Positions 19,007 through 58,675 of a stretch of DNA of 64,000 nucleotides are shown one piece after another. This DNA is from an uncultured Dehalococcoidia bacterium (GTDB taxonomy: Bacteria > Chloroflexota > Dehalococcoidia > Bin125). The position numbers and the translations under genes are program-made. Numbering within the stretch: the first letter of the stretch is position 1; each line of letters begins with the position of its first letter. The stretch lies in NCBI GenBank assembly GCA_964347635.1, contig CAYFZI010000009.1, positions 1,039-65,038 on the forward strand. The letters run 5' to 3'. The notes below the pieces were generated by a model that worked only from the letters and a program-made list of their open reading frames with translations, had not been told where the DNA came from and did no database searches.

Positions 19007-19107
19007 TGCAGCCGCGCCCGCACGCGGTAGCGTGCAGCCCGAACCGCGGCGCCCCCGGCAGGCGCCCGCCCCGCCACCAGTAGCTAGTCCGAGGAGTGAG
19101 GAATCCG

Positions 19108-20127
19108 ATGGAACAGCGGCAATTCGGCAGCAGCGGCCTGACCGCCTCGGCGATCGGCTTCGGCACCTGGGAGATGAGCACCACGATGTACGGCCACATC
19201 GATGTGGGCGAAGCCAGCCGTGCGGTCAACGCCGCGATCGACCGCGGCATCACGCTCTTCGACACGGCCGAGGTCTACGGGCCCTACCACTCCGAAGAGC
19301 TCCTCGCCGCCGCGCTCGGCGCGCGCCGCAACGAGATCGTGCTCGTCACCAAAGTCGGCTTCGAATACGACGACCGCCCCCAAGTCGTCGGCGTCAACGC
19401 CGCGCGCGAGCACATCATTGAGCGCACCGAGGGCTGCCTGCGGCGGCTCCAGACGGACGTGATCGACCTGATGCTGATTCACTGGCCGGACCACGACACG
19501 CCGCTGGAGGAGACGATCGAAGGCCTCGAACGGCTCAAGCAGGACGGCAAAATCCGCCACTACGGCGTCTCCAACTTCAACATCGACATGATGCAGGAGT
19601 GCCAGCGCTACGGCTCGATCGCGGCCAATCAGGTCGGCTACCACATGTTCGACCGCCGCATGGAGCACCGCGTGCTGCCCTGGTGCCTGGCCAACGGGGT
19701 CGGCTACATGGCCTACGGCTCACTCGCATTCGGTCTGTTGACCGGCGCCTTCCAGCCCGACCACAGCTTCGAGGAGGGCGATTGGCGGCGCGCCGGCACC
19801 GCCTTCAATTTGCCCCTCTTCGAGCGCGAAGAGTTCATCAAGGAGGTCGAGGTCACCCGCCGCCTCGCCGAGCTGGCCGACGGCTACGGCAAAAGCGCCG
19901 CGCAGCTGGCGATCGCCTGGGTGCTCGATCACCCGGCCGTCTCCTGCGCGCTGGTCGGCATGCGCAACGAGCGCGAGCTGGAGGAAAACGTGGCCGCGGC
20001 GGATTGGAAGCTGAACGACGAAATCCGCAACGGCGTCAACGCGATCTTCGAGGACGTCGGCGTGCCGACGTATCAGAACACTGCTCAAGTGCTCTACGCT
20101 GCGCGCGCCATTGGCCGCAACCGCTAA
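19108..20127 (+). CDS. aldo/keto reductase
   Basis: ATG 19108 follows GAGGAGTGAGGA (19091-19102). MEQRQFGSSGLTASAIGFGTWEM...FDTAEVYG...LIHWPD are AKR hallmarks. Confidence 0.92.
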   Translation: MEQRQFGSSGLTASAIGFGTWEMSTTMYGHIDVGEASRAVNAAIDRGITLFDTAEVYGPYHSEELLAAALGARRNEIVLVTKVGFEYDDRPQVVGVNAAREHIIERTEGCLRRLQTDVIDLMLIHWPDHDTPLEETIEGLERLKQDGKIRHYGVSNFNIDMMQECQRYGSIAANQVGYHMFDRRMEHRVLPWCLANGVGYMAYGSLAFGLLTGAFQPDHSFEEGDWRRAGTAFNLPLFEREEFIKEVEVTRRLAELADGYGKSAAQLAIAWVLDHPAVSCALVGMRNERELEENVAAADWKLNDEIRNGVNAIFEDVGVPTYQNTAQVLYAARAIGRNR

Positions 20128-20272: not shown

Positions 20273-20278
20273 TAAACT
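20273..20278 (+). promoter_or_regulatory. -10-like hexamer TAAACT, 6 nt upstream of cc1 ATG 20285
   Basis: TAAACT-CACTCC-ATGG. Same context as cc2 (TAGCAT-CGCTCC-ATGG). Confidence 0.4.
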
Positions 20279-20284
20279 CACTCC

Positions 20285-20926
20285 ATGGTTATGGATAAGC
20301 CTGCCCTCGCCAGCGCTCTCACTGAAGGCGGCCTGGATTCAGAGTCTGCCCGCCGCTTCGTCGACCTGATCGAGCGCCAGCAGGCGGAGCTGGCCACCCA
20401 GGCCGAGGTCAACCGCCGCCTGGATGAGCAAGGCGAGCGGCTCGGCGACCGCATCGCCGCCCTCGAGCAGCGGTTCATCGACCTCTACGGCGGCCTCGAG
20501 CGCCGGCTCGACGACGCCAAGGCGGAACATGAGCGCCGCTTCGACGGCCTGGAGCGTCAGCTCGACAACTCCGAGGCAGAAAACGAACGTCGTTTCAACG
20601 GCCTGGAGCGTCAACTCGACAACTCCAGCGCGGAAACCAAGCGCGGCCACGACGGTCTGCAGCGCCAGCTTGACGACTCCAAGGCGGAAAACGAGCGCGG
20701 CCACGGTGGTCTGCAGCGCCAGATCGACGATGTCAAGGCGGAAATCAAGAGCAGCCACGACGGTCTGCAGCGCCAGATCGATGATGTCAAGGCAGAAGTT
20801 GATCGCCGCATCGACGACCTCCGCGACGCCGTCAATCAGCGCTTCAACCTCGTTTTCTGGACGATCGGCGCCAGCATCGCGATCAACGTCGCCCTCTTCG
20901 GCGTGATCCTGTCCAGGCTCTTCTAG
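20285..20926 (+). CDS. tail-anchored coiled-coil repeat protein (cc1; DUF1640/CCDC90-like architecture, tentative)
   Basis: 213 aa. Short N-terminal head (M)VMDKPALASALTEGGLDSESARRFVDLI, five in-frame 18-aa repeats, and a single C-terminal TM (FWTIGASIAINVALFGVIL) 4 residues before the stop. No signal peptide. Confidence 0.75.
   Translation: MVMDKPALASALTEGGLDSESARRFVDLIERQQAELATQAEVNRRLDEQGERLGDRIAALEQRFIDLYGGLERRLDDAKAEHERRFDGLERQLDNSEAENERRFNGLERQLDNSSAETKRGHDGLQRQLDDSKAENERGHGGLQRQIDDVKAEIKSSHDGLQRQIDDVKAEVDRRIDDLRDAVNQRFNLVFWTIGASIAINVALFGVILSRLF
20522..20791 (+). repeat. five in-frame 54-bp tandem repeats (18-aa units) inside cc1
   Basis: Units start at 20522, 20576, 20630, 20684 and 20738. 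They encode AEHERRFDGLERQLDNSE, AENERRFNGLERQLDNSS, AETKRGHDGLQRQLDDSK, AENERGHGGLQRQIDDVK and AEIKSSHDGLQRQIDDVK. Confidence 0.9.
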
Positions 20927-21085
20927 CGCCCGCCTATTCGTAAAGCCGGTGTAACTCCGCCGCTGCTGTTGATTGTAGACAGAACGGGGGATACCTTCCC
21001 GCTCGGCACGGCCTGGCACAAGCGGGCCGCCGCAGCTTGGGCTGCACGGCGCCGCTGGACGCGGCGGAAAGGACCCTCTGGACTC

Positions 21086-24052
21086 ATGCACGCGATGAAC
21101 GGAATTATCGGCCGCCGCGCCTGGCTGCCGGCGCTGGCAACCCTGTCGGCGCTGCTCGCCGTTGCGGTGCTGGCGCTCGCCCCGGCGCGCGCCGCGCCGC
21201 CGGATAACCTGGCGCTCTCGCTCAGCCTGGTCGGCGATTCGGACAACGTGGTGCCGGCCGGCGGGAATCTGCAGGTCGCCGCGAGGCTCAGCTACACCGC
21301 CCAATACGCTCAAGATCTAGTAGTGACCGGCGGCGCGCTGCGCGTCGCCGGCGGCCGCGAGTGGGAATCGAACGGGCGCAGCTCGCTCGGCGTCGAGCCC
21401 GCCGACTTCGGCCCGAAGCGGTACTACGCAGGGGCCGGGAACCGCGTCGCGGTGCAGGAGCGCACGAGCGCTGAGGGCGGCAGCATCGCGGTCGTCGGGG
21501 CGCGCGGCGAAACCGTCAACACGCACGACGCCGCAGGCGCGGCCGACCTCTTCGTGGGCGGCCGGTTTGTCACGCGGCTGACCGCCGACGGCAACGTGCG
21601 TGCGGGCGCCATCTTCGGGCTGTCGGTTGCCGTAGGCGGCGGCTACATCGTCGTCGGCGCGCCGTTCGAAGGCGGTAGCGGGTACGACGTGAATGAGCCC
21701 CAGGGCGCTGTCTACGTTTTCGACGACACGGGCGAACGGGTCGCCAGACTCACCCCGGGCCTGAATGCGGGCGATCCGGGCCAGTATGTGGCCTGGGACA
21801 CCAAGCCCAACCGACACCCGATTAACCGATTCGGCGACGACGTGGCGATCGACGACGCGGGCAATACCATCGTGGTCGCCGCCAAGTCGGCGAAAGCGCA
21901 GCGGAACACGGCGACCGTCTTTGTGTTCACGAAGCCGGCAGGCGGCTGGGCCGACAGGAGCACAGACGACAACGTTCCGTGGCTCTCATCGAGCGACCAG
22001 AACTACCGGTACCGTTTTGCCGCCCCTTCAGGCATCGACATCTCAGCCGACGGCAACATCATCGTTTGGGCCTTTGAGAATGTCTCCAAATCCATCATCG
22101 CGGTCCACGAAAAACCGGGAAGCGGTTGGGGCAACCTTCATCAAGGCTTTGTGACGCTAGACACCACGGAGGATTTTGACCAGCACCGCCCGGGCGAATC
22201 AATAGCCATCAGCGATGACGGCACCACGATCGCCGCCAGCGGCAACAGCCGCTGGGCGGCTGATAGCTATAATGAAGGCACCACGCCCGTCGGCCAGATC
22301 ATCCCAAACCCGGGCCGCGCCTACGTGTGGGAGCGGGACGGTAGCACTTGGACCAACCATACGGACCACGATGCGCTGCTGAGCGACCCAGAGAGCGCCC
22401 ATGGCGACCTGTTCGGCCGGAGCGTGGCGATCAACGGCGACGGCAGCACGATCGTCGTCTCGAACGGCTCGAAATCAGCCAACAACTACGCGGCCGGCGA
22501 GGCGCATGTGTTCGTACGGCCCGGCGCCGCCGGCACCTGGGCGGACGAGGACGAAGCAGACGTCGTGCTGCGATCGCCGCAGAGCGGGGCCCAGCTGTTA
22601 TTCGGATTCGGCGTGGCGCTCGACGGCGACACGCTCGTCGTCGGCCAGGAGGAGTCGCTCACCATCTACCAGATCGCGACCGGCCACGGCCGCGCCTTCA
22701 CCTTCGACATCTCGGCAACCCCGAATGAGGCCGCGGTGCAGCGCACCGGGGCCGAGCTGGTGGGGCCGGTGCGGTGGAACAACTGCACGCTGAGGTGGCT
22801 GGACGGGGTGAAGACCTATACCTGTGATCTCGCGACGGTGGCCGCCGCCGCCATCAACATCCCGGCCGGCACGCCGGACGGCACGTTCACGATCTCGGGC
22901 AGCGTCACCGTGGACGGCGGCGAATCGGGCACCGACGACGACGTGACCTACAGCGCCAGCCTGGAGGTCGAGGTCAGCAGTGAACCTGCGATCGCCGCCG
23001 AGTACGGAGGCTTGGCTTGGGACGCCGCGGCATTAATCCGATACGAAATCAATCAAGCGCTTCTCAGTATCGACGAGGGCGCCCCCGGATCGTACGGTTT
23101 CGACAGCGAGTCTTGGGTCTGCAGCAGCCGCTGCCGCTACTTGAACGTCACGTGGAGCGGTATCCTCCCGCGTGCAGAGCAGGGCAGGGCATACACCATC
23201 ACCATTGCCCGTAACCGCATCCCGGCCGCGCAGGACCTCGGCATTACCGATGATGAATTCGGAAAAGTGCTGGTGCCGACGCAAATGTCCCTGTCCATAT
23301 CCGGCAGCAGCACTTCCCAGCAATACGTGCCTATACCTTGGGCGGGCGAAACCGTGACCGTTACGGTCAGCGGAGACGGTGCGGAAGCATCCGCCGCCGT
23401 GAAGATTCCCGCTCCTGACCGCCCTGCTGTTTTCAGCTCCAGGGCGATGGCGGATCAGGTCGGCGCGACGCTGGCGGCGGATCCCGACGCCGCCGATCTG
23501 CCGATCGTGATGTCCGTCTGGCGCAAGGTCTCAGGGGCCACCCACTACGAAGTGCAGTACACCTTCCGGACCCGCTCCAGAGACGAAGAACGCCTGACGA
23601 AGGTGACCCGCATCGTGAGGTACAGCGATCTCTCCGACCAAAGCGGAGACTCTGGGCAGTATTCAAGCTTCAGCGCCAACTGGGATCAGCACCCGAACGC
23701 GTCGGTGCGGGGCTTGGAGGACAGCGACTTCGGCGAGGAGGGTGAATGGATGGGCGCGTTGATCACCCTGCCCGAGCTGCTGGCCGGCGAGGCCGGCTGG
23801 CCGGCGGATGCACTGGCTGCGAAGACCGAGATCACCGCGGCGCTGCGCGCAGGCAAGGAGAACGCGGTCGGCGTGCGGGTTCGCCCGCTGGCGGCCTGCG
23901 CCGCCCTGCTCATCCAGAGCGATCACTGCTTTGATCGGCACCTGCAGCAGCCGGGGGTCCTAGCGCTGTGGGGCAGGAAGAGCAAGATCACCTACGTGAC
24001 GTTCAATGGCGCCAACGCGCAGGAGTGGATCAGCTCCGCCGCCGGCGGCTAG
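21086..24052 (+). CDS. large secreted FG-GAP (integrin-alpha-like beta-propeller) repeat protein with uncharacterised C-terminal half
   Basis: ATG 21086 gives the signal peptide MHAMNGIIGRRAWLPALATLSALLAVAVLALAPARA. At least 5 FG-GAP-like units: FGLSVAVGGGYIVVGAP, FGDDVAIDDAGNTIVVAA, PGESIAISDDGTTIAASG, FGRSVAINGDGSTIVVSN, FGFGVALDGDTLVVGQ. FN3-like ATHYEVQY lies near the C-terminus. Confidence 0.8.
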   Translation: MHAMNGIIGRRAWLPALATLSALLAVAVLALAPARAAPPDNLALSLSLVGDSDNVVPAGGNLQVAARLSYTAQYAQDLVVTGGALRVAGGREWESNGRSSLGVEPADFGPKRYYAGAGNRVAVQERTSAEGGSIAVVGARGETVNTHDAAGAADLFVGGRFVTRLTADGNVRAGAIFGLSVAVGGGYIVVGAPFEGGSGYDVNEPQGAVYVFDDTGERVARLTPGLNAGDPGQYVAWDTKPNRHPINRFGDDVAIDDAGNTIVVAAKSAKAQRNTATVFVFTKPAGGWADRSTDDNVPWLSSSDQNYRYRFAAPSGIDISADGNIIVWAFENVSKSIIAVHEKPGSGWGNLHQGFVTLDTTEDFDQHRPGESIAISDDGTTIAASGNSRWAADSYNEGTTPVGQIIPNPGRAYVWERDGSTWTNHTDHDALLSDPESAHGDLFGRSVAINGDGSTIVVSNGSKSANNYAAGEAHVFVRPGAAGTWADEDEADVVLRSPQSGAQLLFGFGVALDGDTLVVGQEESLTIYQIATGHGRAFTFDISATPNEAAVQRTGAELVGPVRWNNCTLRWLDGVKTYTCDLATVAAAAINIPAGTPDGTFTISGSVTVDGGESGTDDDVTYSASLEVEVSSEPAIAAEYGGLAWDAAALIRYEINQALLSIDEGAPGSYGFDSESWVCSSRCRYLNVTWSGILPRAEQGRAYTITIARNRIPAAQDLGITDDEFGKVLVPTQMSLSISGSSTSQQYVPIPWAGETVTVTVSGDGAEASAAVKIPAPDRPAVFSSRAMADQVGATLAADPDAADLPIVMSVWRKVSGATHYEVQYTFRTRSRDEERLTKVTRIVRYSDLSDQSGDSGQYSSFSANWDQHPNASVRGLEDSDFGEEGEWMGALITLPELLAGEAGWPADALAAKTEITAALRAGKENAVGVRVRPLAACAALLIQSDHCFDRHLQQPGVLALWGRKSKITYVTFNGANAQEWISSAAGG

Positions 24053-24080
24053 GGGCTGTTCACCCTGACAGCCCAACCTC

Positions 24081-24116
24081 CATCCCTGCTCCTCCGCTTG
24101 CGGGGGAGCAGGGATG
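24081..24116 (+). terminator. 12-bp perfect hairpin 29 nt after the FG-GAP gene stop, loop carries a CCGCTTGCGG core
   Basis: CATCCCTGCTCC (24081-24092) and GGAGCAGGGATG (24105-24116) are exact complements. No U-tract. Confidence 0.4.
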
Positions 24117-24191
24117 TGTGCAGCGAATCTTCCCGGCCGGCAGGCCAATGCAGCATTAGCTTCGTCCGTCCGTTCGCCCTTCCCGCGGCGG

Positions 24192-24200
24192 TGGTAGCAT
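24192..24200 (+). promoter_or_regulatory. extended -10-like TGgTAGCAT, 6 nt upstream of cc2 ATG 24207
   Basis: TGG TAGCAT at 24192-24200, then CGCTCC, then ATG. Confidence 0.4.
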
Positions 24201-24206
24201 CGCTCC

Positions 24207-24800
24207 ATGGACAAGCTGCGCGTCTACGAAGCATTCCGGGCAGCAGGTATGGACGACGCAGCCTCAACGCGGCTGGCCGACGCTCTCTATGACGGCCGCT
24301 CGGGGCTGATCGCAAGCGGCGACCTGGAGTCCGCGCTCGCACGGCTCGGCTCCGACTTCGAATCCGCGCTCGCGCTGCTCAAGTCCGACCTTGAAGCCGC
24401 CGTCGCGCTGCTGGACCAGCGGCTGACGGCGCTGGAAGGGAAGGTTGACCGCGAGTTCGCCGCTGTTCGCAGTGAGATCCAGGATCTGCGTGAGGAGCTG
24501 CGCGACTTGCGCAGCGAGATGGTGGAGCGCGATGAGCGTCTGCGCGGTGAGATGGTGGAGCGCGACGAGCGTCTGCGCGGGGAGCTGCGCGACTTGCGCA
24601 GCGAGATGGTGGAGCGCGATGAGCGTCTGCGCGGTGAGATGGTGGAGCGCGACGGGCGTCTGCGCGGGGAGCTGCGCGACTTGCGAGGCGAGATGGCTCA
24701 GCGCGATGAACGTCTGCGCCGCGACATGACTTGGGCTTTAGGCGCGCTGTTTACCCTCATCGTGGCGCTGATGGGCATCGTGATCGGCTTCGCCGTCTGA
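24207..24800 (+). CDS. tail-anchored coiled-coil repeat protein (cc2; paralogous architecture to cc1)
   Basis: 197 aa. Head MDKLRVYEAFRAAGMDDAASTRLADAL, 11-aa/29-aa tandem repeats (EMVERDERLRG), and a C-terminal TM (WALGALFTLIVALMGIVIGFAV) ending at the stop. Confidence 0.75.
   Translation: MDKLRVYEAFRAAGMDDAASTRLADALYDGRSGLIASGDLESALARLGSDFESALALLKSDLEAAVALLDQRLTALEGKVDREFAAVRSEIQDLREELRDLRSEMVERDERLRGEMVERDERLRGELRDLRSEMVERDERLRGEMVERDGRLRGELRDLRGEMAQRDERLRRDMTWALGALFTLIVALMGIVIGFAV
24495..24720 (+). repeat. 87-bp tandem repeat (two copies 86/87 identical plus a diverged partial third), each containing two 33-bp sub-repeats, inside cc2
   Basis: Copies start at 24495, 24582 and 24669. The only difference between copies 1 and 2 is GACGAG versus GACGGG. 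Confidence 0.92.
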
Positions 24801-24839
24801 TTTTCCCCGCTCTCGCTTGCAAGCGGGGGCGGCAGAAAA
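24801..24839. other. TTTT-hairpin-AAAA element between convergent cc2 and gatB
   Basis: CCCCGCT (24805-24811) pairs with AGCGGGG (24822-24828). Contains the 12-nt perfect palindrome CGCTTGCAAGCG (24814-25). The T-run is 5' and the A-run 3' on both strands. Confidence 0.4.
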
Positions 24840-24877: not shown

Positions 24878-26359
24878 CTAGCCGCCCAGCGCTGCTTGGA
24901 GCAGCCCGCTTGCCTGCTTGGGATTGGCTTGGCCGCGGCTGAGCCGCATGACCTGGCCGACCAGGAATTTGAGCGCTTCCGGCTTGCCGCTGCGGTAATC
25001 GTCGGCCGCTTGGGAGTGCTCCTCGAGCACCTGGCGGATGATCGGGCTGAGCGCGTCCTCGCCGCTGATCTGCGCGAGGCCGAGGCGCTCGACGATCGCT
25101 TCCGCGCCCCCGCCCGATTGATACATCTCGGCGAACACGTCTTTGGCCTGGGTGTTGCTGATCTTGCCGCCCTCGATCAGCTGCACCAGCGCGGCCAGCT
25201 GTGCGGGCTGCAGCGCGATCGTTTCCAGCGCGCCCCGGCGCTCGTGCATGAGCCGGTTGAGTTCGCCGACGATCCAGTTGGCGATTGCCCGCGGGGCGGC
25301 GGCGGGCGGAGCGCTGCCGAGCGCGGAGACGGCGGCTTCGAACCAGTCTGCGCGGGCCGGTTCCTCGGTCAGCAGGCCGGATTCAAAGGGCGGCAGGCCG
25401 TACTGCGTTTCAAAGCGGGCGCGGCGGGCGGCGGGCAGCTCGGGCAGCGAGCGGCGCAGCTGCTCGACGGCGGCGCGCTCGATCATCAGCGGCGGCAGGT
25501 CGGGTTCGGGGAAGTAGCGGTAGTCGTGCGCTGCTTCCTTGGAGCGCTGCGAGACGGTGCGCTGCTCATCCTCATCCCAGCCGCGCGTTTCCTGCGCGAT
25601 CGCCCCGCCGGCCTCGAGTGCCTGGGCCTGCCGCACGCTCTCGAACTCCAGCGCGCGCTGGACGCTGCGGAAGGAGTTCATGTTCTTCACTTCGACCTTC
25701 GCGCCCAGCTGCGGATCGCCGCGGCGGCGCAGCGAGATATTGGCGTCGCAGCGGAACGACCCCTTTTCCATATCGGCGCTCGAGACGCCGAGGTAGCGCA
25801 GGATCTGGCGCAGCTGGACGAGGTATTGGCGTGCCTGCCGGGGGCTGCGCATGTCGGGCTCGGAGACGATCTCCATCAGCGGCACGCCGGAGCGGTTGAC
25901 GTCGACCAGCGAGAAGCGCTCGCCGGCCTCGTTGTCGCGGTGCAGCAGGCGGGCTGTGTCCTCCTCGAGATGCACGCGGGTGATGCCGATTCGGCAGAGG
26001 CCCAAGTCTTCGCTTTCAACGTCGAGCCAGCCGGCCTCGCTGAGCGGCATGTCGTACTGCGAGATCTGGTAGCCCTTCATCAGGTCGGGGTAGGGGTAGT
26101 TCTTGCGGTCGAACTTGGAGAGCTCGGGGATGCGCATGTTGAGCGCCAGCGCGGTGCGGATCGTCCATTCGACGGCGGCGGCGTTGATCACCGGTAGGGT
26201 GCCGGGCATGCCGAGGCAGAGCGGGCAGACATAGGTGTTGGGGGCGGCGTCAGCGTAGTCGGCCGGGCAGCGGCAGAACATCTTGCTCGCGGTGCGCAGC
26301 TGGGCGTGCACCTCGAGGCCGATGACGGTTTCCCAGTCGGCGCCGGCAGTGTTGGTCAT
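24878..26359 (-). CDS. gatB: Asp-tRNA(Asn)/Glu-tRNA(Gln) amidotransferase subunit B
   Basis: 493 aa. [24 protein letters not shown]...[15 protein letters not shown] is the canonical GatB N-terminus. Confidence 0.96.
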
Positions 26360-26422: not shown

Positions 26423-27262
26423 ATGTCTATGTCTTCCACCTCTACCCGCTATGCCGCGCACGAGCGCTTGCACGGGTTGGCCGCCCCGCCCCGCCCGCTG
26501 CGCATGCTGCACACCTCCGATGTCCACCTTGGCGCCTACACCTCCGAGCCGCTGCGCGAGAACGGCGCGCTCGAGCCGGCCCTGCGCGCCTTCCAGCACG
26601 TGCTCGCGCTCGGCGCGGAGGCTGAGGCCGATCTCGTCGTGATCGCCGGCGACTTCTTCGATCACGTGCGCGTCAAGCGGCCCTACGTCGAGGCCGCCGG
26701 AGCTCTGCTCGAAGCGGCGGCGCGGCCGGTGGTGATCCTGCCCGGCAACCACGATCCGCACATGCCCGACGGCATCTACGCCAGGTTTCCTGAGGCCTTT
26801 CCCGCCAACGTGCACATCATCGCTTCCGCTGAGGGCGAGCTGATCGTGCTCGATGAGCCGGGCGTGCAGCTCTGGGGCCAGGCGCACGAGAGCTACAACG
26901 ACTTCGCGCCGGCCGCCGTCTGCCCGGCCTGGCGGCGCGACCGCGGCCGCCCCCTCTGGCGCATCGCCGTCGCCCACGGCTACTACGTCGGCACCGGCGA
27001 ATCGCGCTATTCGTACCAGATCCGCGCCTCCGACCTGGCCGCACTCGACGCCGACTACGTGGCGCTCGGCCACATCGACGTGCACGAAGGCGTGGGCGGC
27101 GGCGCGGTGCCGGCCTACTACCCGGGCGCGCCGCGCCACTCCGGCGGGGCGACGATTGTCGATCTATCCAGCGAGGGGGTGGTCGTGCGCCATGAGCTGC
27201 ACGCGGGCCACAACGAGCAGCGCGCTCAGCACGCCGCCCCCATGTTTCCCGGCTCCGCCTGA
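26423..27262 (+). CDS. metallophosphoesterase (calcineurin-like, SbcD/Mre11-type fold)
   Basis: Motifs LHTSDVHLG, VVIAGDFFDH and LPGNHD. A start at 26423 or a few codons downstream is possible. Confidence 0.8.
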   Translation: MSMSSTSTRYAAHERLHGLAAPPRPLRMLHTSDVHLGAYTSEPLRENGALEPALRAFQHVLALGAEAEADLVVIAGDFFDHVRVKRPYVEAAGALLEAAARPVVILPGNHDPHMPDGIYARFPEAFPANVHIIASAEGELIVLDEPGVQLWGQAHESYNDFAPAAVCPAWRRDRGRPLWRIAVAHGYYVGTGESRYSYQIRASDLAALDADYVALGHIDVHEGVGGGAVPAYYPGAPRHSGGATIVDLSSEGVVVRHELHAGHNEQRAQHAAPMFPGSA

Positions 27263-33657: not shown

Positions 33658-35355
33658 TCAGGGGCTGATTTCGACGCGGATCAGGTTGTTGGTTTCGTTC
33701 GATTCGGGTGTGCTGTTGTTAGGGTCGAGGACGATCACGACCGTACCGCTGTGGACGGCGGAGCCGGCGAGGATTTCGCTGCCGCGCGGCGGGAGCGGCG
33801 CGGCTGCCGCGCCGCGGGCGATCGTTTCGAGGATCTGGCCGTTCTCGGCGAGTATGTGGATGACGAACTCGTCCGATGCGGCCTCGCCGGCGTTGACGAC
33901 GGTCAGCAGCGCGTAGCCGTCGTCGGTGAAGCGCGCTTCGAGGAATGCCAGGTCGGCAAGGCGGTCGGCGGGCTCGTCGGACGGGTCGTCGGCAGGGTCG
34001 GCGGGTTCGGAGGCTTGCTGCCCGCCGTCCGGCGCTGTTTCGCCGTCCTCGGCCGCAGGCTCGCCCTCGGGGCCGCTGCTGTCCGGGCTGTCGGCCGGTG
34101 AGAGCTGCAGCTGGAAGGTGTTGTTGCTGGCGTCGGCGTCGCGCTCCGATTCGAGCGCGAGCAGGGCGTCGGTCGGCTCAGCGACGCGGACTTGCAGGGG
34201 TACGTTGGCGCGCTGCTCGGGATCGAGCGTGAGCAGCGCGCCGGCGGAGGCGAGCAGGCTGGCGTCGCGGGTGCGGATCAGCGAGAGCGCGATCTCGACC
34301 CGCTCGGCCCGGCCGCCGCCGCTGTTGATGATCGTGACCGAAATGCCCTCAGCATCTTGCCGCACGGTCAGGATCGCCAGGTCGGCCGCGCTGCTGTCGA
34401 TTGACTGCTGCGCCGCTTGCGGCTCGTCTGCCGACTCCGCCTGCGGCTCGTTGTCGGCCTGATCCGCGGCCGGCTCGCCGCTCACGACGATCCTGATCAG
34501 ATCCTCGAAGCGCTCCTGGTCCACAGTCAGCGCGACGAGCTGCAAATCGTAGGGGCCGGCCTCTGTGAACCACGCCTGGACACCGCGGACGACCTCGCGG
34601 TAAACGCCGCCCGCGGCGTCCACGTCGGGGGTGGCGGAGTAGGCCAGCTGCGAGCGGCCGAAGGATCCATCGGCCAGCACGGGCGTGACATAAAAGAGCA
34701 CGCTCGACAACGGGCCGGTGCCCGAGGTTTCGAGCTCGACATCGAAGCTTTCGCCGGAGCTGAGGTCGTAGCGGGCGCCGCTCTCGGGGCTGAGGATGCG
34801 CGCTGCGCCGTTGGTCGGCGGTGCGGCGCGGGGCGCGGCCGCGGCCTGTTCGGAGCCGCCGCCGTTCGCCCCGGCGGGCTGCGCCTGAGCGGTCGCCTGC
34901 GGCTGGGCGGCGCCGGCCTGCTGGCGCGCTTGCTGCCTTGCCTGGTCGACGCGCTGCGCGTCGTCGGTGACGTCGACGCGGATGCTGGTTTCAGGCTGCG
35001 CGCCGGCGGTGTCGGTGGCGACGATGCGCAGCGCGGCGAAGCCAAGCGCCTCGGGCGTCCAGAAGAGCACGGCGGTGTAGCGGCCCTGATCGTAATCGGC
35101 GATCGGGGTGGCCTGGGTGACGATGACGCCGTCGACGATCAGCGTGAAGATGGTGATCGGCTCGCCGCTGCGGACACTGACCTCGACTTCGAGCGGTTGG
35201 CCGAGCAGGACCGGCTGGTCGTTGATCAGGGAGACGAGGATGACGGGCTGTTCGGCGTCGGAGTCGCCGGCGAAGCGGGTCACGAGCAGGACGGCGACGA
35301 GGACGATGGCAGCGAGCGCGATCAGCACGATCAGGCTGCCGATGCGGCTTCCCAT
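33658..35355 (-). CDS. membrane-anchored extracellular protein with Ig-like / CARDB-like repeats and acidic linkers
   Basis: N-terminal anchor SLIVLIALAAIVLVAVLLV. CARDB-like terminal strands (DASNNTFQLQLSP and PESNETNNLIRVEISP). Acidic Pro/Asp/Glu linkers. Confidence 0.7.
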   Translation of the reverse strand: MGSRIGSLIVLIALAAIVLVAVLLVTRFAGDSDAEQPVILVSLINDQPVLLGQPLEVEVSVRSGEPITIFTLIVDGVIVTQATPIADYDQGRYTAVLFWTPEALGFAALRIVATDTAGAQPETSIRVDVTDDAQRVDQARQQARQQAGAAQPQATAQAQPAGANGGGSEQAAAAPRAAPPTNGAARILSPESGARYDLSSGESFDVELETSGTGPLSSVLFYVTPVLADGSFGRSQLAYSATPDVDAAGGVYREVVRGVQAWFTEAGPYDLQLVALTVDQERFEDLIRIVVSGEPAADQADNEPQAESADEPQAAQQSIDSSAADLAILTVRQDAEGISVTIINSGGGRAERVEIALSLIRTRDASLLASAGALLTLDPEQRANVPLQVRVAEPTDALLALESERDADASNNTFQLQLSPADSPDSSGPEGEPAAEDGETAPDGGQQASEPADPADDPSDEPADRLADLAFLEARFTDDGYALLTVVNAGEAASDEFVIHILAENGQILETIARGAAAAPLPPRGSEILAGSAVHSGTVVIVLDPNNSTPESNETNNLIRVEISP

Positions 35356-35416: not shown

Positions 35417-37696
35417 CTAGCCGAGCACCCGCGCTTCGGCTGCCGCTACCAGCTGCCGGGTCTGTTCGATCATGTCGGGTGTGACAGAGATCGACGTGAT
35501 CCCCCACTCGACTAGACGCTCGGCGAGGTCGGGATGTTCCGAGGGTCCCTGTCCGCAGACGGAAACGGTGACACCGCAGCGCTTGCCCGTCTCGATCACG
35601 CTGCGGATCGCCTGCAGCACCGCGGGGTTGCGCTCATCGAAGGTGTCGCTGAAGCGTTCGGAATCGCGGTCGATCCCGAGCGTCAGCTGAGTGAGGTCGT
35701 TGGAGCCGATCGAGACGCCGTCGACGCCCTGGGCGATGAACTCCTCGAGCAGCCAGACGTTGGAGGGCACCTCGACCATGATCCAGATCTTGAAGCTGTC
35801 CGAACGCTGCAGCCCAAAGCCCTCGACGAGGTCGATAACCTGGCGCAGCTCCTCGGGGGTGCGCACGAAGGGGATCATCAGGTGCAGCCCCGGGTATTGG
35901 CGACGGACGCGCTCGAGCGCGCGCAGTTCGAGCGCGAAGAGATCGGGCTCGCGCACGTAGCGGGCCGCGCCGCGGTAGCCGATCATCGGGTTTTCCTCGT
36001 TCGGCTCGTAATCCGCGCCGCCCTTGAGGTTGGCGTATTCGTTGGTCTTGAAGTCGGTCGCGCGGTAGATGACGGGGCGCGGGTGGAAAGCGGCGGCGAT
36101 GCTGCGCAGCCCCTCGGCGAGGCCGTCGACGTATTCGTCGGCGCGGCCGCTGTCGAGGAAGGAGCGGGGATGCTCGCCGATGCGGGCGATGATGAACTCG
36201 GCGCGCAGCAGGCCAACGCCGTCGACAGCGCGCTGCGCGACGCGCTCGGCGATCTCCGGGTTGGCGAGATTCACATAAATCTTGGTCTGCGTGTCGGGCG
36301 CATCGGCTTGCCGCTGCTGCTGCTGGCGGCGCCACCACTCGATCAGTTCCGTCTGCTCGGCCTCGTAGACGCGCCCCGTTGCGCCGTCGACGGTGACGAT
36401 CAGGTCTTCGGCGAGCCCGCGGGCGCCGGCGGCGCCGACGATGCAGGGCACGCCGAGTTCGCGGCTGATGATCGCGGCGTGGCAGGTGCGCCCGCCCTTT
36501 TCGGTGATGATCGCGGCGGCGCGCTTCATCGCGGGGACGAAGTCGGGCGTGGTCATCTCCGCGATCAGCACATCGCCCGCTTCGATCATGCTGGTCTGCG
36601 AGGGGTTGGCGACGACGCGCACACGCCCGGCGGCGACGCCGGGGCTGGCCGGCGAGCCGCTGAGCAGCGGCTCGCTCTGCAGCGCGGGCGCCGAGCCGAG
36701 GTCGCCGGCGGGCTGCGCGAGCGTGGTGATCGGCCGCGTCTGGAGCAGATAGAAGCGCCCCTCTGCCCAGCCCCATTCGATGTCCTGCGGTCCGCCGTAG
36801 TGGCGCTCGATCCGCTTGCCGAGCCGCGTCAGTTCGATCACCTGAGCGTCGCTGAGCTTGGCTCGGCCGCCGTCGGCCGCGCTGAGCGGCTGCCAGATGT
36901 TCGCTTCGCCGCCGCTGCCGTTGGGGTTGCGGATCAGCCTGCGCTCCTGCTGGAAGATCTGGCGCTGGATGATCGCTTCGCTGGATTTCTCGACTTCGAA
37001 GTGGTCAGGGCTGACCAGCCCGGCGACGACCGCCTCGCCGAGGCCGAAGGCGGCCTCGATGACGACGCGCTCGGGATCGTTGGTGATCGGGTCGATCGTG
37101 AACATCACGCCGGAGGCCTGAGACTGCACCATGCGCTGCACGGGCACGGCGAGGTCGACCTCGGCGTGCCCCCAGCCGGCGTGCTCGCGGTAGAAGACGG
37201 CGCGGGCCTCGAACAGCGAGGCCCAGCAGCGCTGGACGGCGTCGACGACATCGGCGGCGCCCTCGATGTTGAGGTAGGTGGACTGCTGCCCGGCGAATGA
37301 GGCTTCGGCGAGGTCTTCGGCGGTGGCCGAGGAGCGGACGGCGACGGCCCCCCCGCCGAGCGCGCGGTAGGCGCGCTCAATCTCGCCGCGCAGCTGCGCC
37401 GGCATTGCCGCCTGCTCGATCGCCGCCCGAATCTCGCAGCTGACGCGCTGCAGCGCCTCGTCGTCCTCGACGTCGAGCCCCTCGATCATCGCGGCGATGC
37501 GGCCTTCCAGGCCGGTCTCCACGAGGAATGCGCGGTAGGCGGCGGTGGTCACGACGAAGCCCGGCGGGACCGGGATCTGGGCCTGGGTCAGTTCGCCGAG
37601 ATTGGCGCCCTTCCCGCCCACGAGCGGCACCGCCTCGCGGCCAACCTGGTCAAACCAGACGATCGAGGCGTGTTCGAGGGCGGAGTAAGGGGGCAT
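35417..37696 (-). CDS. ppsA: phosphoenolpyruvate synthase (pyruvate, water dikinase)
   Basis: 759 aa. Three parts: the N-terminal ATP-grasp (VPLVGGKGANLGEL), the phosphohistidine domain (TEKGGRTCHAAIISRELGVPCIVG) and the C-terminal PEP-utilising TIM barrel. Confidence 0.95.
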   Translation of the reverse strand: MPPYSALEHASIVWFDQVGREAVPLVGGKGANLGELTQAQIPVPPGFVVTTAAYRAFLVETGLEGRIAAMIEGLDVEDDEALQRVSCEIRAAIEQAAMPAQLRGEIERAYRALGGGAVAVRSSATAEDLAEASFAGQQSTYLNIEGAADVVDAVQRCWASLFEARAVFYREHAGWGHAEVDLAVPVQRMVQSQASGVMFTIDPITNDPERVVIEAAFGLGEAVVAGLVSPDHFEVEKSSEAIIQRQIFQQERRLIRNPNGSGGEANIWQPLSAADGGRAKLSDAQVIELTRLGKRIERHYGGPQDIEWGWAEGRFYLLQTRPITTLAQPAGDLGSAPALQSEPLLSGSPASPGVAAGRVRVVANPSQTSMIEAGDVLIAEMTTPDFVPAMKRAAAIITEKGGRTCHAAIISRELGVPCIVGAAGARGLAEDLIVTVDGATGRVYEAEQTELIEWWRRQQQQRQADAPDTQTKIYVNLANPEIAERVAQRAVDGVGLLRAEFIIARIGEHPRSFLDSGRADEYVDGLAEGLRSIAAAFHPRPVIYRATDFKTNEYANLKGGADYEPNEENPMIGYRGAARYVREPDLFALELRALERVRRQYPGLHLMIPFVRTPEELRQVIDLVEGFGLQRSDSFKIWIMVEVPSNVWLLEEFIAQGVDGVSIGSNDLTQLTLGIDRDSERFSDTFDERNPAVLQAIRSVIETGKRCGVTVSVCGQGPSEHPDLAERLVEWGITSISVTPDMIEQTRQLVAAAEARVLG

Positions 37697-37823
37697 GGTG
37701 TATCCCGTCGGAGTCAGGCGGAGGATATCACCGCATGAACCTGACGCTAGCGGGCGCTGGTGCTCCGCCGGCTGTTCCGTCGAGCAGAGAAGCGCTGCGG
37801 GCGGTGCTGCGCTGCATCGGCGG

Positions 37824-39668
<1,845 letters not shown>

Positions 39669-39695
39669 GATGGTTCCCGCAGCCCCGCCCGCCGC

Positions 39696-41090
39696 TCAGC
39701 CGGCGCTGGTCCAGGACCGCCCGTTGGAGCGGGTCGGTTGGACGCTGGCCGCGCCGGCCTGCGCGATCGACTCTACGAGGTCGGAGAGGGTGTAGACAAA
39801 CGAGAGCGGCCTGCCGAGCTTGGCTTCCAGCTGCTCGGGGGTCATGTCGTCGAGGAAGCGGCGGCCGAAGTAGTCGAGGCTGGCGCGGGGCAGAAAGACG
39901 CGGTCGCCGACCGGGCGGCCGCTCAGCGCGGCCTCAAAATCGCCGCCCGAGAGCAGCCCGGACACGTTCACCCGATCGCCGAACAGCGAGTTGGGTACGG
40001 CGATCACTTCGATCGCCGCCCCGAGCCGCGGGCCCGCGTCCTGGGCCAACCGCTCGAGTGTGGGCGCGATCAATGCGCCGCATGCGAGCGTCAGCCGCTG
40101 GGGGCGATCGCCGCTCAGCTGAATCCGCCCTGCCGCCAGCCGCCGGCGCGTGCGGGCCCAGTCGTCCAGCAATGTGCGCACCATGCCGATGCCGTTCTCC
40201 CACTGGGGAAAGCCGTCGTAGCGCGCGGCTGCGGGGATTCGGGCGCCGGCGGTGAGATAGAGCTCATCGGAGGGAAACACGATCGAAGCTCCGCGCTGCC
40301 CGCGCGCGCGCCGCTGCCAGCGGCGCAGCCGGCGCAGCGTGCGCCGCGCCGCGGCCGGCGTGCAGGCGCGCATTCCCTCGTCGTCGATCCGCGCTTCGCC
40401 CTGGATGCTGGAGCCGACCGGCACAACGCCGATCGAGAGCACATTCTCGTGCTCAAGCAGCGCGCCGACCGTCTCATCGAGCGCATCGCCGTCGTTGACG
40501 CCGGGGCAGAGCACGACCTGCGTGTGGGCTTCGATGCGCATTTGCGCCAGGCGGCGCAGCTGGCTGCGGATGTCGGGCGCGCGGGGGTTGCCGAGCATGC
40601 GGCGGCGCAGTTCGAGGTTGGTCGCGTGCACCGACACGTGCAGCGGGCTGAGGCGCTGCTCCTCGAGCCGCGCCCAATCGTCGCCGCTCAGGTTGGTCAG
40701 GGTGACGAAGTTGCCGTGCAGGAAGGAGAGGCGGTAGTCGTCGTCTTTCACGTAGAGCGGCCGCCGCAGCCCTTTGGGCAGCCCTTTGAGGAAGCAGAAG
40801 AAGCAGGCGTTGTTGCAGATCCGCGTGCCGTCGAAGGCGTCGTCGCTGAATTCGATGCCGAGCGGCTCATCGATCGGCTTTTCGAATTCCACGATCCCAG
40901 GCTCGCCGTCGTGGATCACATCGAGCGTGACGATGCTGTCAGTGGTCTGGAAGCGGTAGTCGAGCGGATCGCGCGGGGGCGCGCCGTTGACGCGCAGCAC
41001 GCGGTCGCCGGGCTGGAGTCCGGCCGCGTCGGCGAGCGATTCGGGCTCGACCGACGCGATCGCGCCGCTGTTGCGTACCCGCCGGGCCAT
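39696..41090 (-). CDS. DUF512-family protein (N-terminal PDZ-like domain plus Cys-rich radical-SAM-like core), function unknown
   Basis: GLQPGDRVLRVNG (PDZ-like) followed by RICNNACFFCFLKGLPKGLRRPLYVKDDDYRLSFLHGNFVTLTNL, as in DUF512 proteins of Firmicutes and Chloroflexi. Confidence 0.8.
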   Translation of the reverse strand: MARRVRNSGAIASVEPESLADAAGLQPGDRVLRVNGAPPRDPLDYRFQTTDSIVTLDVIHDGEPGIVEFEKPIDEPLGIEFSDDAFDGTRICNNACFFCFLKGLPKGLRRPLYVKDDDYRLSFLHGNFVTLTNLSGDDWARLEEQRLSPLHVSVHATNLELRRRMLGNPRAPDIRSQLRRLAQMRIEAHTQVVLCPGVNDGDALDETVGALLEHENVLSIGVVPVGSSIQGEARIDDEGMRACTPAAARRTLRRLRRWQRRARGQRGASIVFPSDELYLTAGARIPAAARYDGFPQWENGIGMVRTLLDDWARTRRRLAAGRIQLSGDRPQRLTLACGALIAPTLERLAQDAGPRLGAAIEVIAVPNSLFGDRVNVSGLLSGGDFEAALSGRPVGDRVFLPRASLDYFGRRFLDDMTPEQLEAKLGRPLSFVYTLSDLVESIAQAGAASVQPTRSNGRSWTSAG

Positions 41091-41103
41091 CCGCGCGGCC
41101 GCC

Positions 41104-41979
41104 TCAGGCGCTGGCGGCGAGCTGTGCGCCGATCTGCTCGATCCGCTCAGCGACGGCGTCGATCGAGAAGTCGGGCGTCGAGGCGCCGGCCGTCACGCCG
41201 ATGTCATGGTGCCCGTGGAACCACTCGTCGCGGAGCTCGGCGGCCGTCTCGACGTGGTACGTCTCGACGCCGTTGGCCCGCGCGAGGTCGGCCAGGTGGC
41301 GGGTGTTGGCGCTGTTGTGCCCGCCGACGACGATCATCAAATCGACCTCCGTGGCTAGGTCGCGGGTCGCGGCCTGCTGTGAGGTGGTCGCGTTGCAGAG
41401 CACGTTGACGACGCGAATCTCGGTCAGCTGGTCGATCCGCTTGGTCATCAGGTTGGCCACGAACTGCGCGAAGCGCTCGGGCGTGTGGGTGGTCTGAGAG
41501 ATCACGCCGATCTTGCTCGGCAGGTATTCGGGCAGCGTCTCGAGCGACTCGTCCGGGACAACGACGCCGCGTCCGCGGCACCAGCCGAGCACGCCTTTGA
41601 CTTCGGGGTGGGTCGGGTCGCCGAAGATGATCACGGTGAAACCGCGGTCGGCGAGGTTGCGCGCCGCGCGCTGCGAGCGGGCGACGAACTGGCAAGTCGT
41701 ATCGATGACCTCGAAGCCCTGCGCCTCGATGTCGCGCACGACTGTCTCGCCGACGCCGTGGGCGGTGATCGCGACGGTCGAGGTGCCGACGCCCTCGACG
41801 GTGCGGTTTTCATTGACGGCGATGCCGGTTTCTTCGAGCTGCGCGACGACCTGCGGATTGTGCACGACCTGGCCGAGCGTCGTCACCGGACGCCCCTCGG
41901 CGGCGGCCTCCTGCATCATGTCCACGGCGCGCCGCACGCCGAAGCAGAAGCCCATATCGCGCGCGCGGTGGATCCTCAT
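41104..41979 (-). CDS. ispH: 4-hydroxy-3-methylbut-2-enyl diphosphate reductase
   Basis: ATG 41979 (MRIHRARDMGFCFGVRRAV) overlaps the plsC stop by 1 nt (TGATG). LytB repeats are present (VVHNPQV, GHNSANT). Confidence 0.93.
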   Translation of the reverse strand: MRIHRARDMGFCFGVRRAVDMMQEAAAEGRPVTTLGQVVHNPQVVAQLEETGIAVNENRTVEGVGTSTVAITAHGVGETVVRDIEAQGFEVIDTTCQFVARSQRAARNLADRGFTVIIFGDPTHPEVKGVLGWCRGRGVVVPDESLETLPEYLPSKIGVISQTTHTPERFAQFVANLMTKRIDQLTEIRVVNVLCNATTSQQAATRDLATEVDLMIVVGGHNSANTRHLADLARANGVETYHVETAAELRDEWFHGHHDIGVTAGASTPDFSIDAVAERIEQIGAQLAASA

Positions 41980-45979: not shown

Positions 45980-46352
45980 TGATCCACTGTCGGACCGTGA
46001 TCTGCTGCTCGATCATCGTGGTGCGCGTCACCTGCGGGCGCGGCTGCCGGCGGCCCTGCACCAGGCCGCGCGCCTGGCGCGCCAGCGCAGGCGCGGCGCA
46101 GCGCATCGTCCAGTCGGTCAGGGCGGCGGCGGCGATCACCGCAGCGGCGCTGCGCAGGGCCGGCGCGAAGGGCGCGAGATCGGCGCGCACGGCAGGCAGC
46201 AGCGCCATCCGCTCCGCACCGCTCCGGACCTCGGTGGGGATCAGCGCGCGGCTGGCCGCGCTGTCTGTGAGCGCGCGGCCGCAGGCGGGGCAGAAGTTGT
46301 CGTTGTCCGCGCCGCCGGCGCGCTGAGCACAGCGGGTGCAGGCTTGCAGCAT
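45966..46352 (-). CDS. hypothetical zinc-ribbon protein
   Basis: MLQACTRCAQRAGGADNDNFCPACGRAL is a CxxC...CxxC ribbon, followed by a hydrophobic stretch AAAVIAAAAL. The 3' end overlaps the LTD gene start by 14 nt. Coding status is plausible but unproven. Confidence 0.5.
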   Translation of the reverse strand: MLQACTRCAQRAGGADNDNFCPACGRALTDSAASRALIPTEVRSGAERMALLPAVRADLAPFAPALRSAAAVIAAAALTDWTMRCAAPALARQARGLVQGRRQPRPQVTRTTMIEQQITVRQWISVRS

Positions 46353-47295: not shown

Positions 47296-47561
47296 TCATC
47301 CGTCTCATAGGCGGAGGCCTGCAGCTGCTCAATCCGCAGCTGGGCCTGGTCGAGCAGCTGCTGGGCGCGCGCGCCCAGCGCGATCCCCTCGCCGTAGGCC
47401 GTCACCATTTGGTCGAGCGGCAGTCCGCCGGCCTCGAGCTGCGCGATGACCAGCTCCAGCTGCGCAACGACCTGCTCAAAGCGCAGCGCCGGATCGACTG
47501 TCGTGTCGACCGCAGCGCCGACTGCAGTGCCGAGCGCCGGCTGCGCTGCGTCTTCAGCCAT
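47292..47561 (-). CDS. xseB: exodeoxyribonuclease VII small subunit
   Basis: LRFEQVVAQLELVIAQLEAGGLPLDQMVTAYGEGIALGARAQQLLDQAQLRIEQL is the canonical XseB helix-hairpin. ATG 47561 overlaps the xseA stop by 8 nt. Confidence 0.88.
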   Translation of the reverse strand: MAEDAAQPALGTAVGAAVDTTVDPALRFEQVVAQLELVIAQLEAGGLPLDQMVTAYGEGIALGARAQQLLDQAQLRIEQLQASAYETDE

Positions 47562-48888: not shown

Positions 48889-48901
48889 CGCGGCCCCCGC
48901 C

Positions 48902-51987: not shown

Positions 51988-52092
51988 GCGCAGCCGCTCC
52001 AGATAGCGCTCCAGCTGCCCGCGCCAGGGCTCTTCAAGGTCGGATGCAACGCTGTCGATGGCGCGTCCGCGCCCGCCAAGCCACGCTGCCTG

Positions 52093-52098
52093 AGCTTA
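52093..52098 (-). promoter_or_regulatory. -10-like hexamer TAAGCT upstream of xerC
   Basis: The complement of AGCTTA at 52093-52098 reads TAAGCT. A GTG lies 8 nt downstream (52084-52082) but is +1 out of frame with the xerC body. Confidence 0.25.
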
Positions 52099-52178
52099 CA
52101 CCGCCCGCCCGCAAGCTTTGCACAACGCTCACAGCGCCCGCTCCGCCTACCCCGCGTGCGAAGAGGCAGCAGCGGAGC

Positions 52179-58654: not shown

Positions 58655-58675
58655 CGGCACTTGATGGGATCAGCG

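Follow-up and report, generated by a model that had tools for sequence, protein, structure and literature searches.

DUF1640 proteins are integral membrane proteins of prokaryotes and mitochondria, with a stalk that opens with a beta-layer motif, [aliphatic]-A-T-K-[polar]-[D/E] (Hartmann et al., PMC4786415). Two divergent members of this family, here called cc1 and cc2, are encoded on either side of a gene for a secreted FG-GAP protein in a 64,000-nucleotide stretch from an uncultured Dehalococcoidia bacterium of the Chloroflexota (assembly GCA_964347635.1, contig CAYFZI010000009.1, positions 1,039 to 65,038 of the forward strand), referred to below as the window. The protein encoded between them resembles the head of integrin alpha and the bacterial FG-GAP_2 (PF14312) surface proteins: a signal peptide is present, and seven FG-GAP blades are followed by a beta-sandwich domain, where integrin alpha has a thigh-like immunoglobulin (Ig) domain. 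Its relatives outside the window recall the simple-sequence contingency loci of host-adapted bacteria such as Neisseria, Haemophilus and Bordetella, in which poly-G or poly-C tracts are located in promoters or at 5' coding ends. Each of the three genes is a new divergent representative of an already known family, and the block is read here, with a probability of about 70%, as three independently transcribed genes of two unrelated kinds that are neighbours in one species but not an obligate module.

The three genes are arranged on the forward strand in the order cc1, FG-GAP gene, cc2, downstream of an aldo/keto reductase gene (19096-20127) and upstream of a convergent gatB gene, exactly as reported in an earlier annotation of the window made without database searches (the sequence-only reading). 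The nearest named genomes are metagenome-assembled genomes (MAGs) of uncultured Dehalococcoidia; the species representatives do not include the species of the window, and the best match among them has about 40% protein identity. Three other contigs belong to the same species as the window: L004, which is colinear with the window across 22 kb at 96.5-97% DNA identity; L076, of which the cc1 and cc2 products are identical to those of the window; and L008, a partial contig that stops right after cc1. The sequence-only reading had proposed that the trio could be an envelope or adhesion module. Linkage was assessed for 16 FG-GAP genes with approximately 10 kb of flanking DNA each: the window species contributed the gene of the window itself, another in L006 and three in L005, and sister lineages contributed two each in L007 and L009 and one each in L010-L014, L019 and L073. 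A cc gene is found nearby in two of the 16 (the window and L006), both in this species, and none is located within 10 kb of the other 14 (L005, L007, L009-L014, L019 and L073). Elsewhere, an ortholog of cc2 is situated directly downstream of relA/spoT in three sister genomes, a cc1-type gene adjoins the succinate dehydrogenase (sdh) genes in a relative, and another cc1-type gene (L077:79-492, 56% identical) is convergent to a topA gene with 94% DNA identity to topA of the window. Beside its own topA the window has a xerC-like tyrosine recombinase gene (51070-52179) in place of the cc1-type gene, which indicates that DUF1640 genes occupy different sites in close relatives. Given linkage in only two of 16 cases, and cc genes elsewhere beside relA, topA and sdh, a conserved module is not supported: the trio is kept within one species and is a species-specific juxtaposition.

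The upstream regions of the three genes also set them apart. A scan for consensus sigma-70 promoters and terminators found nothing upstream of any of them, and -10 boxes emerged only when the upstream regions of cc genes were aligned. All eight cc genes in the alignment, from five genomic contexts, have TANNNT exactly 6 nt before the ATG (TAAACT, TACACT, TATGCT, or TAGCAT, with TG ahead in the cc2 copies), and none of the eight has a Shine-Dalgarno sequence. This layout occurs at four of the 1,074 ATGs of the window, those of cc1, cc2 and, presumably, gatB and a metallophosphoesterase gene, and cc1 and cc2 would each be transcribed from a dedicated promoter as a leaderless mRNA. In L004, gatB and a divergent metallophosphoesterase gene have TAGACT and TAGGCT, respectively, exactly 6 nt before the ATG; these are taken to match gatB (24878-26359, reverse strand) and the metallophosphoesterase gene (26423-27262, forward strand) of the window, the other two of the four. 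Some housekeeping genes of this organism appear to be leaderless, and others have clear Shine-Dalgarno sites. Upstream of the FG-GAP gene, approximately 150 nt are homologous to the upstream regions of its paralogs. The sequence-only reading had assigned to each gene its own -10-like box and/or a strong downstream hairpin: the boxes of the cc genes and the strong hairpin after the FG-GAP gene were confirmed, but the hairpin after cc2 is no more stable than those of shuffled sequences and none was found downstream of cc1. The putative dedicated promoters of the cc genes, the upstream region of the FG-GAP gene with its ribosome-binding site, and the hairpin with a 16-bp stem that follows the FG-GAP gene make it most likely that the three are transcribed separately, as had been suspected.

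The assignment of cc1 and cc2 to the DUF1640/CCDC90 family was proposed in the sequence-only reading, and it is upheld by matches of the family to PF07798 and by a profile match of the head to a solved structure. When 1.84 billion cluster representatives were searched with one profile built from cc1, cc2 and their close relatives, 242 proteins were matched at E <= 1e-3, mostly of 120-220 aa and from end to end, and 40 of 54 aligned family sequences (cc1, cc2 and 52 relatives) match PF07798 at E <= 1e-3 (best 9.4e-14). Since the relatives match PF07798 while cc1 and cc2 score below its cut-off, the two belong to the family by transitive homology, as divergent members. With a profile of the head only, including cc1 and cc2, the best match in the PDB was the CCDC90B head (6H9M, E = 6.9e-5), aligned over the head helices, followed by 6H9L; this match is to the head itself and not to coiled-coil composition. 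The full-length family profile also matched 6H9M (E = 4.8e-7) and 6H9L (E = 6.7e-7), in a listing dominated by apolipoprotein 11-mer repeats. A PDB search with a single short relative of cc2 and a Foldseek search with the monomer model of cc2 were uninformative, as expected of one long helix, and no relative was found in JGI metagenome contigs scanned with the cc2 alignment. Compared directly, cc1 and cc2 have 21% protein identity (E = 0.002 in this single comparison), and cross-matches through short relatives reach E = 1e-6 to 1e-8. Both have an MVMD(K/R) start, G16, R24, D27 and a W..G motif within the membrane helix and, judged by these sequence comparisons, are distant paralogs. Each belongs to a separate subfamily with members in other species, and these subfamilies are old. 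The dN/dS (ratio of nonsynonymous to synonymous substitution rates) of the alignable parts of the cc genes is 0.13 and 0.25, indicative of purifying selection.

Like other members of the family, which include human MCUR1 and CCDC90B, cc1 and cc2 possess a helical N-terminal head with the motif D-T-x-x-x-x-x-x-L-x-x-A-G-F/L...A-E, a long coiled coil, one C-terminal membrane helix and a size within 130-230 aa. At the junction of head and stalk both have a beta-layer-type motif, but in degenerate form. They differ further in having no mitochondrial context, and their stalks are near-perfect tandem repeats with copy numbers that vary among strains. The heads align cleanly throughout the family as D-(T/K)-x6-L-x2-A-G-(F/L)-x4-A, followed after about 15 residues by L-A-T-K-x-D-L; at this beta-layer position the family reads LATKxDL by consensus, whereas the sequence of cc1 is LATQAE, in which Q takes the place of K. 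In the AlphaFold2 model of cc2 (mean pLDDT, the predicted per-residue confidence, 93.8), head helices at residues 3-12 and 17-31 precede a break at 32-36, which coincides with the position of the beta-layer motif, and a continuous helix at 37-196 that includes the membrane segment (pLDDT > 90). This model and hydropathy bear out the layout of head, coiled-coil stalk and C-terminal transmembrane helix described by the sequence-only reading. No N-terminal hydrophobic segment was found in cc1 or cc2 by the hydropathy scan, and because a signal peptide is lacking and positive charges precede the transmembrane helix, both proteins are predicted to be tail-anchored and to expose head and stalk to the cytoplasm. 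If they resemble their eukaryotic relatives of known structure, 6H9M and 6H9L, which are presumably trimers, each would form a parallel coiled-coil stalk approximately 22-24 nm long. Such a stalk would keep a small binding head at a set distance from the membrane and so serve as a scaffold or spacer tethered to it.

The in-frame tandem repeats that had been noted in both proteins were confirmed with Tandem Repeats Finder, and the units were then written in register. In cc1 a 54-nt unit is repeated 5.4 times (score 253); in cc2 a 33-nt unit is accompanied by an 87-nt unit with 2.7 copies (score 407). All are in frame and far above chance. The stalk helix of each protein, about 150-160 residues long, is made of repeats of 11, 18 or 29 residues, and repeats of this style are found throughout the family. 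Written in register, cc1 consists of a 69-residue head and neck, the 18-residue units and the anchor, with four units in L008 (177 aa), six in the window and L076 (213 aa) and seven in L004 (231 aa). The 11-residue array A of cc2 has three units in the window, ten in L004, four in the complete copy of L006 and five in its partial copy; array B, with 2.7 copies in the window, has about one in L004. The differences in stalk length are whole repeats of 18 or 11 aa and are seen between genomes approximately 97% identical (96.5-97% at the DNA level), and unequal recombination or slippage inside the in-frame repeats alters stalk length among strains. With 3.6-3.67 residues to each turn of the helix, the repeat lengths of 11, 18 and 29 residues make up 3, 5 and 8 turns, a periodicity that general coiled-coil theory classes as the hendecad type. 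Because all unit lengths fit this value, the register of head and anchor would be preserved, and gain or loss of whole units may change the length of the stalk without rotating the head relative to the anchor.

The gene between cc1 and cc2 spans 20969-24052 if opened from a TTG codon, but its start is likely the ATG at 21086, which gives 988 aa and is preferred because it aligns with the N-termini of homologs. A hydrophobic segment at residues 11-38, ending APARA/AP, bears out by hydropathy the signal peptide that the sequence-only reading had assigned to this protein. The signal peptide holds the twin-arginine-like sequence GRRAWL, where more distant paralogs have RPR, and both Sec and Tat are candidate routes of export. 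FG-GAP_2 (PF14312) was matched with 67.6 bits (cut-off 23, E = 1.1e-18). The FG-GAP blades are thus present, by Pfam and in the structural model, but their number, counted by eye in the sequence and alignment as FG...GAP-type blades, is seven, where the earlier count had been at least five. Residues 40-632 are modelled by AlphaFold2 mostly with confidence, apart from some short loops, and the best Foldseek matches of the model are integrins alpha5, alphaIIb, alphaV and alphaM (E = 9e-12 to 1e-9; TM-score, normalized to the target, up to 0.59). The protein is a seven-bladed integrin-alpha-like propeller with Ig-like domains, and it is exported. As regards the calcium-binding DxDxDG loops of integrin-type blades, segments such as ISADGN, ISDDGT and INGDGS are visible in the sequence. 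Unlike integrin alpha, with which it shares only 12-15% identity, the protein has no transmembrane segment or cytoplasmic tail, as hydropathy finds no hydrophobic segment beyond residue 194, and it has no beta partner, there being no gene similar to integrin beta subunits among those near the trio. With neither membrane anchor nor beta-subunit partner, it is integrin-like in fold only. It may act at the cell surface as a ligand-binding or adhesion protein.

A sequence search returned 72 relatives of the FG-GAP protein, the close ones from Dehalococcoidia genomes with three to seven copies each; one MAG (CATQGW01) has seven paralogs. The window protein shares with Dehalococcoidia paralogs (P0009-P0039) the upstream region, the signal peptide and the first approximately 630 residues, at 39-63% identity, as well as a conserved pair of cysteines and the motif IPAGTPDGTFTIS in the Ig-like domain. 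Homology to every paralog ends at nt 22922-22975, near residue 630. Beyond this point the paralogs have Big_1-like Ig repeats followed by a conserved C-terminal domain, LLW..G.W.RY..DG..IPGS.DFEV.RGAILWL, whereas the window protein continues for 358 residues that have no relatives: matches came only from the same species, none was found in Pfam or the PDB, and AlphaFold2 modelled the segment at pLDDT < 40. The FN3-like motif that the sequence-only reading had recognized in the C-terminal half was not detected as an FN3 domain. The orphan segment is coding, as indicated by an in-frame GC3 (G+C content at third codon positions) of 0.79 and a dN/dS of 0.47. The possibility that it is the frameshifted tail of a paralog was rejected, as tblastn in all frames gave no support. 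Because a family-type upstream region and the first 630 or so residues are followed by 358 unrelated residues, the window gene is a chimera. At the protein level the whole gene changes faster than its neighbours, with a dN/dS of 0.47-0.65 compared with 0-0.17 for flanking housekeeping genes, all from small counts; raised values are common in surface proteins.

Several features were observed around the paralogs. At L005:22054-23279 the paralog P0014 (765 aa) is split, and because the conserved C-terminal part appears in the gene calls as a gene of its own, of 389 aa, P0014 is regarded as a pseudogene or frameshifted copy. Palindromic elements of the form GTCATTCCCGCG-N4-CGCGGGAATGAC or ATTGCCGC-N-GCGGCAATGAC are clustered between genes around FG-GAP paralogs (L010:13380-13760, L007:9167-9937 and L009:9700-9760), and one stretch of palindromic repeats in L007 is called as a "gene" of 256 aa. 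At L006:8273-9625, just upstream of the FG-GAP paralog that precedes two cc2-type genes, a terminase (Terminase_3) is encoded together with a NosD/beta-helix protein and a Big_1 protein, which may be a prophage remnant; the L006 contig ends within the second cc2 copy.

The FG-GAP paralogs outside the window have long homopolymers clustered near their 5' ends, with almost no others of 9 nt or longer in these 20-kb loci. Poly-G tracts (15-25) are located between -35-like (TTGAC or ACTTT) and -10-like (TAGCGT, TAAGTT, TAAAAA or TAAATC) hexamers, and poly-C tracts (11-17) are located within codons of the signal peptide, where they are read as PPP to PPPPP. At an orthologous HpaB / FG-GAP / PNPOx locus in three genomes, the promoter tracts are G19, G18 and G18, and the stretch from GTTTTG to GTTAAC is 16, 12 and 18 nt long; the 12- and 18-nt stretches are in frame, and with the out-of-frame 16-nt stretch the gene is called N-terminally truncated. 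In their position between promoter hexamers and in signal-peptide codons, and in their strain-variable length, these homopolymers are like those of the contingency loci of Neisseria, Haemophilus and Bordetella. The pattern looks like simple-sequence phase variation of both promoter spacer and signal peptide, although errors in the assembly of homopolymers are possible. Unlike the contingency loci, the lengths in the paralogs are known from assemblies of different strains only, and the window gene itself has no tracts: in contrast to many Dehalococcoidia paralogs it lacks both the poly-G promoter tract and the poly-C signal-peptide tract, no homopolymer of 9 nt or longer occurs anywhere in the window, and the homologous promoter position holds G5. 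The features of the locus and the tracts of the paralogs are listed in Table 1.

Table 1. Features of the cc1/FG-GAP/cc2 block in the window, and homopolymer tracts of FG-GAP paralogs in other contigs.
Feature	Position	Strand	Basis or remark
-10-like hexamer TAAACT, 6 nt before cc1 ATG, putative leaderless promoter	20273..20278	+	upstream alignment
cc1, divergent DUF1640/CCDC90-like protein of 213 aa, with head, beta-layer motif in degenerate form (LATQAE), stalk of repeats and C-terminal transmembrane helix	20285..20926	+	
cc1 stalk array, six 18-residue (54-nt) units GLxRQLDDxKAExxRxxD	20492..20815	+	Tandem Repeats Finder, register alignment
cc1 C-terminal transmembrane helix, aa 187-213	20843..20923	+	hydropathy scan
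FG-GAP upstream region common to paralogs: TTGATT-17-TACCTT, ribosome-binding site GGAAAGGA, G5 only where paralogs have G15-G25	20936..21085	+	
Secreted FG-GAP/integrin-alpha-like protein, 988 aa	21086..24052	+	
Predicted signal peptide MHAMNGIIGRRAWLPALATLSALLAVAVLALAPARA, contains RR	21086..21193	+	hydropathy, alignment
Part conserved in the family (aa ~40-632), with a beta domain at its N-terminus, seven FG-GAP blades and an Ig-like domain that contains Cys	21203..22981	+	
Orphan C-terminal 358 aa replacing Big_1-like Ig repeats and conserved terminal domain	22976..24049	+	
Hairpin after FG-GAP gene, 16-17 bp stem, likely terminator	24081..24116	+	z = -3.9; unique in window
-10-like hexamer TAGCAT after TGg (extended -10), 6 nt before cc2 ATG	24195..24200	+	upstream alignment
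cc2, 197 aa, divergent DUF1640/CCDC90-like protein	24207..24800	+	
cc2 stalk array A, 11-residue units DLEAAxALLxS, 3 in window	24320..24412	+	
cc2 stalk array B, 29-residue (11+11+7) units ELRDLRSEMVERDERLRGEMVERDERLRG, 2.7 copies in window	24485..24719	+	
cc2 C-terminal transmembrane helix, aa 173-197, RLRRD just before	24723..24797	+	hydropathy scan
Palindromic hairpin with an 11-bp stem where cc2 and gatB converge	24807..24832	.	z = -0.6, no better than shuffles
Poly-G upstream of FG-GAP paralogs	L005:9885 G25; L005:13421 G15; L007:9919 G16; L009:9820 G16; L010:9790 G18; L019:9779 G24; L073:9749 G17		
Poly-C in FG-GAP paralogs	L010:9963 C17; L011:9969 C14; L014:9968 C15; L073:9962 C15; L078:1395 C16; L079:1586 C11		

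The sequence-only reading had called the trio the only non-housekeeping block of the window. Elsewhere in the window, several long open reading frames have no Pfam match at E <= 1e-5 (33658-35355 and 58670-61372 on the reverse strand; 37695-41408, 44387-45982 and 47446-48954 on the forward strand). Some of them may be spurious; the G+C content of the window is 68%.

Several observations weigh against the view that the three genes are unrelated neighbours of known families. Each of the three contigs of this species that span the block (the window, L004 and L076) has the trio intact, with the reductase gene on one side and gatB on the other, and L006 provides a second locus of the species at which an FG-GAP paralog is followed by two cc2-type genes. 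This recurrence could mean functional coupling and not an old segmental duplication. Both cc proteins fall below the PF07798 cut-off of 33.5 bits (22.8 for cc2, 13.8 for cc1), and cc2 has the degenerate sequence IASGDL at the beta-layer position, where its nearest relatives have VTKDD or LTKDD. To our knowledge, none of the prokaryotic DUF1640 proteins has a known function, and the role of scaffold or spacer rests on analogy. On the strength of the conserved trio and of the FG-GAP gene followed by a cc2-type gene at two separate loci, together with a GC3 of 0.79-0.85 in all three genes against 0.89-0.91 in flanking housekeeping genes, the FG-GAP gene and cc2, or the whole trio, might be regarded as a functional envelope module, in which the DUF1640 protein serves the propeller as membrane anchor, export helper or transmembrane coupler. 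Such partnering would matter most for the window copy of the FG-GAP protein, which has lost the usual C-terminal domain of its family. A module of this kind is nevertheless unlikely: cc genes are absent from the 10 kb around 14 of the 16 FG-GAP genes, the orthologs of cc2 in sister genomes are beside relA and cc1-type genes beside topA or sdh, the predicted topology would allow only minimal contact with the exported propeller, since no more than 0-4 residues of either cc protein would protrude from the membrane, and separate promoters and a strong hairpin divide the FG-GAP gene from cc2. Between the window and L006 loci, coding sequences have 72-77% identity but intergenic DNA is not alignable, a pattern that fits an old duplication of FG-GAP gene and cc2 as well as it fits functional linkage. 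The sequence-only reading had stated that its proposal would be contradicted by cc genes that are scattered and never beside FG-GAP genes; they are scattered, but the pair of an FG-GAP gene and a cc2-type gene does recur in L006. Because the pair is found at two loci, a more elaborate proposal can be made, that this is an envelope locus which varies between strains and in which the pairing matters for function. The FG-GAP protein would belong to a family of phase-variable, integrin-like adhesins, which would be the first contingency family to be described in Chloroflexota; it would be a "locked-on" member with a remodelled C-terminus and would act together with a DUF1640 protein of the cc2 type, while the count of repeats in the DUF1640 stalks would tune the length of a cytoplasmic spacer. 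This proposal is very doubtful.

It is also quite improbable that the block is a horizontally acquired or mobile island, with the cc genes as cargo or boundary genes that move between sites. The sites of cc genes do differ in close relatives, as at topA in L077 and the window; homology between cc copies starts only 30-60 nt upstream of the ATG and stops at the stop codon; a terminase gene is present near the L006 locus; GC3 is lower than in neighbouring genes; and DUF1640 genes have been reported from prophage regions of Liberibacter (PMC5291501). However, no direct or inverted terminal repeats, tRNA gene, integrase or transposase were found in or beside the block, its G+C content (approximately 62-73%) has no sharp break, cc2 has no match in 50,697 phage genomes, the matches to PHROGs are coiled-coil noise only, and no relative was found that lacks the block between the reductase gene and gatB. 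Searches for island boundaries gave no meaningful inverted repeats, no tRNA genes and no Rfam match; these absences and the mere 21% identity of cc1 and cc2 speak against the suggestion of the sequence-only reading that the paralogs mark the ends of an inserted island. A search of phage genomes with the FG-GAP protein gave one marginal match, in Vibrio phage nt-1. An origin of the cc proteins from phage lysis, spanin or holin-like proteins, or a role for them as components of anti-phage defence, is extremely improbable. The matches that point this way are weak (a PHROG Rz-like spanin at E = 0.008; PDC-M40C, ZorA and LmuB of PADLOC at E = 1e-6 to 1e-3), and all of them are in the coiled coil and typical of matches by composition and periodicity, as are those to apolipoproteins; no partner genes of these systems are nearby, and the head domain matches CCDC90B specifically. 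Phage and defence identities were rejected for all three proteins after searches of NCBIfam, PHROGs and PADLOC, which gave weak coiled-coil matches, none near the cut-off.

The reading of the block as three independent genes of two unrelated kinds carries a caution, that adjacency inside one species is not evidence of a module. The main interest of the locus is in the variation of stalk length between strains, the chimeric orphan C-terminus of the FG-GAP protein, and the apparently phase-variable paralog family beyond the window. The DUF1640 family bridges bacteria and mitochondria (MCUR1, CCDC90B), and if the pairing of the FG-GAP protein with a cc2-type protein were true, it would provide the first functional context for prokaryotic DUF1640 proteins. 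The natural stalk-length variants of near-identical strains, which differ solely in how many stalk repeats they have, could serve to test whether length matters. No literature report of on/off switching of surface proteins in Chloroflexota was found; the homopolymer tracts of the paralogs suggest that uncultured Dehalococcoidia turn surface proteins on and off in this way, and such switching would suggest that hosts, phages or grazers exert strong selection.

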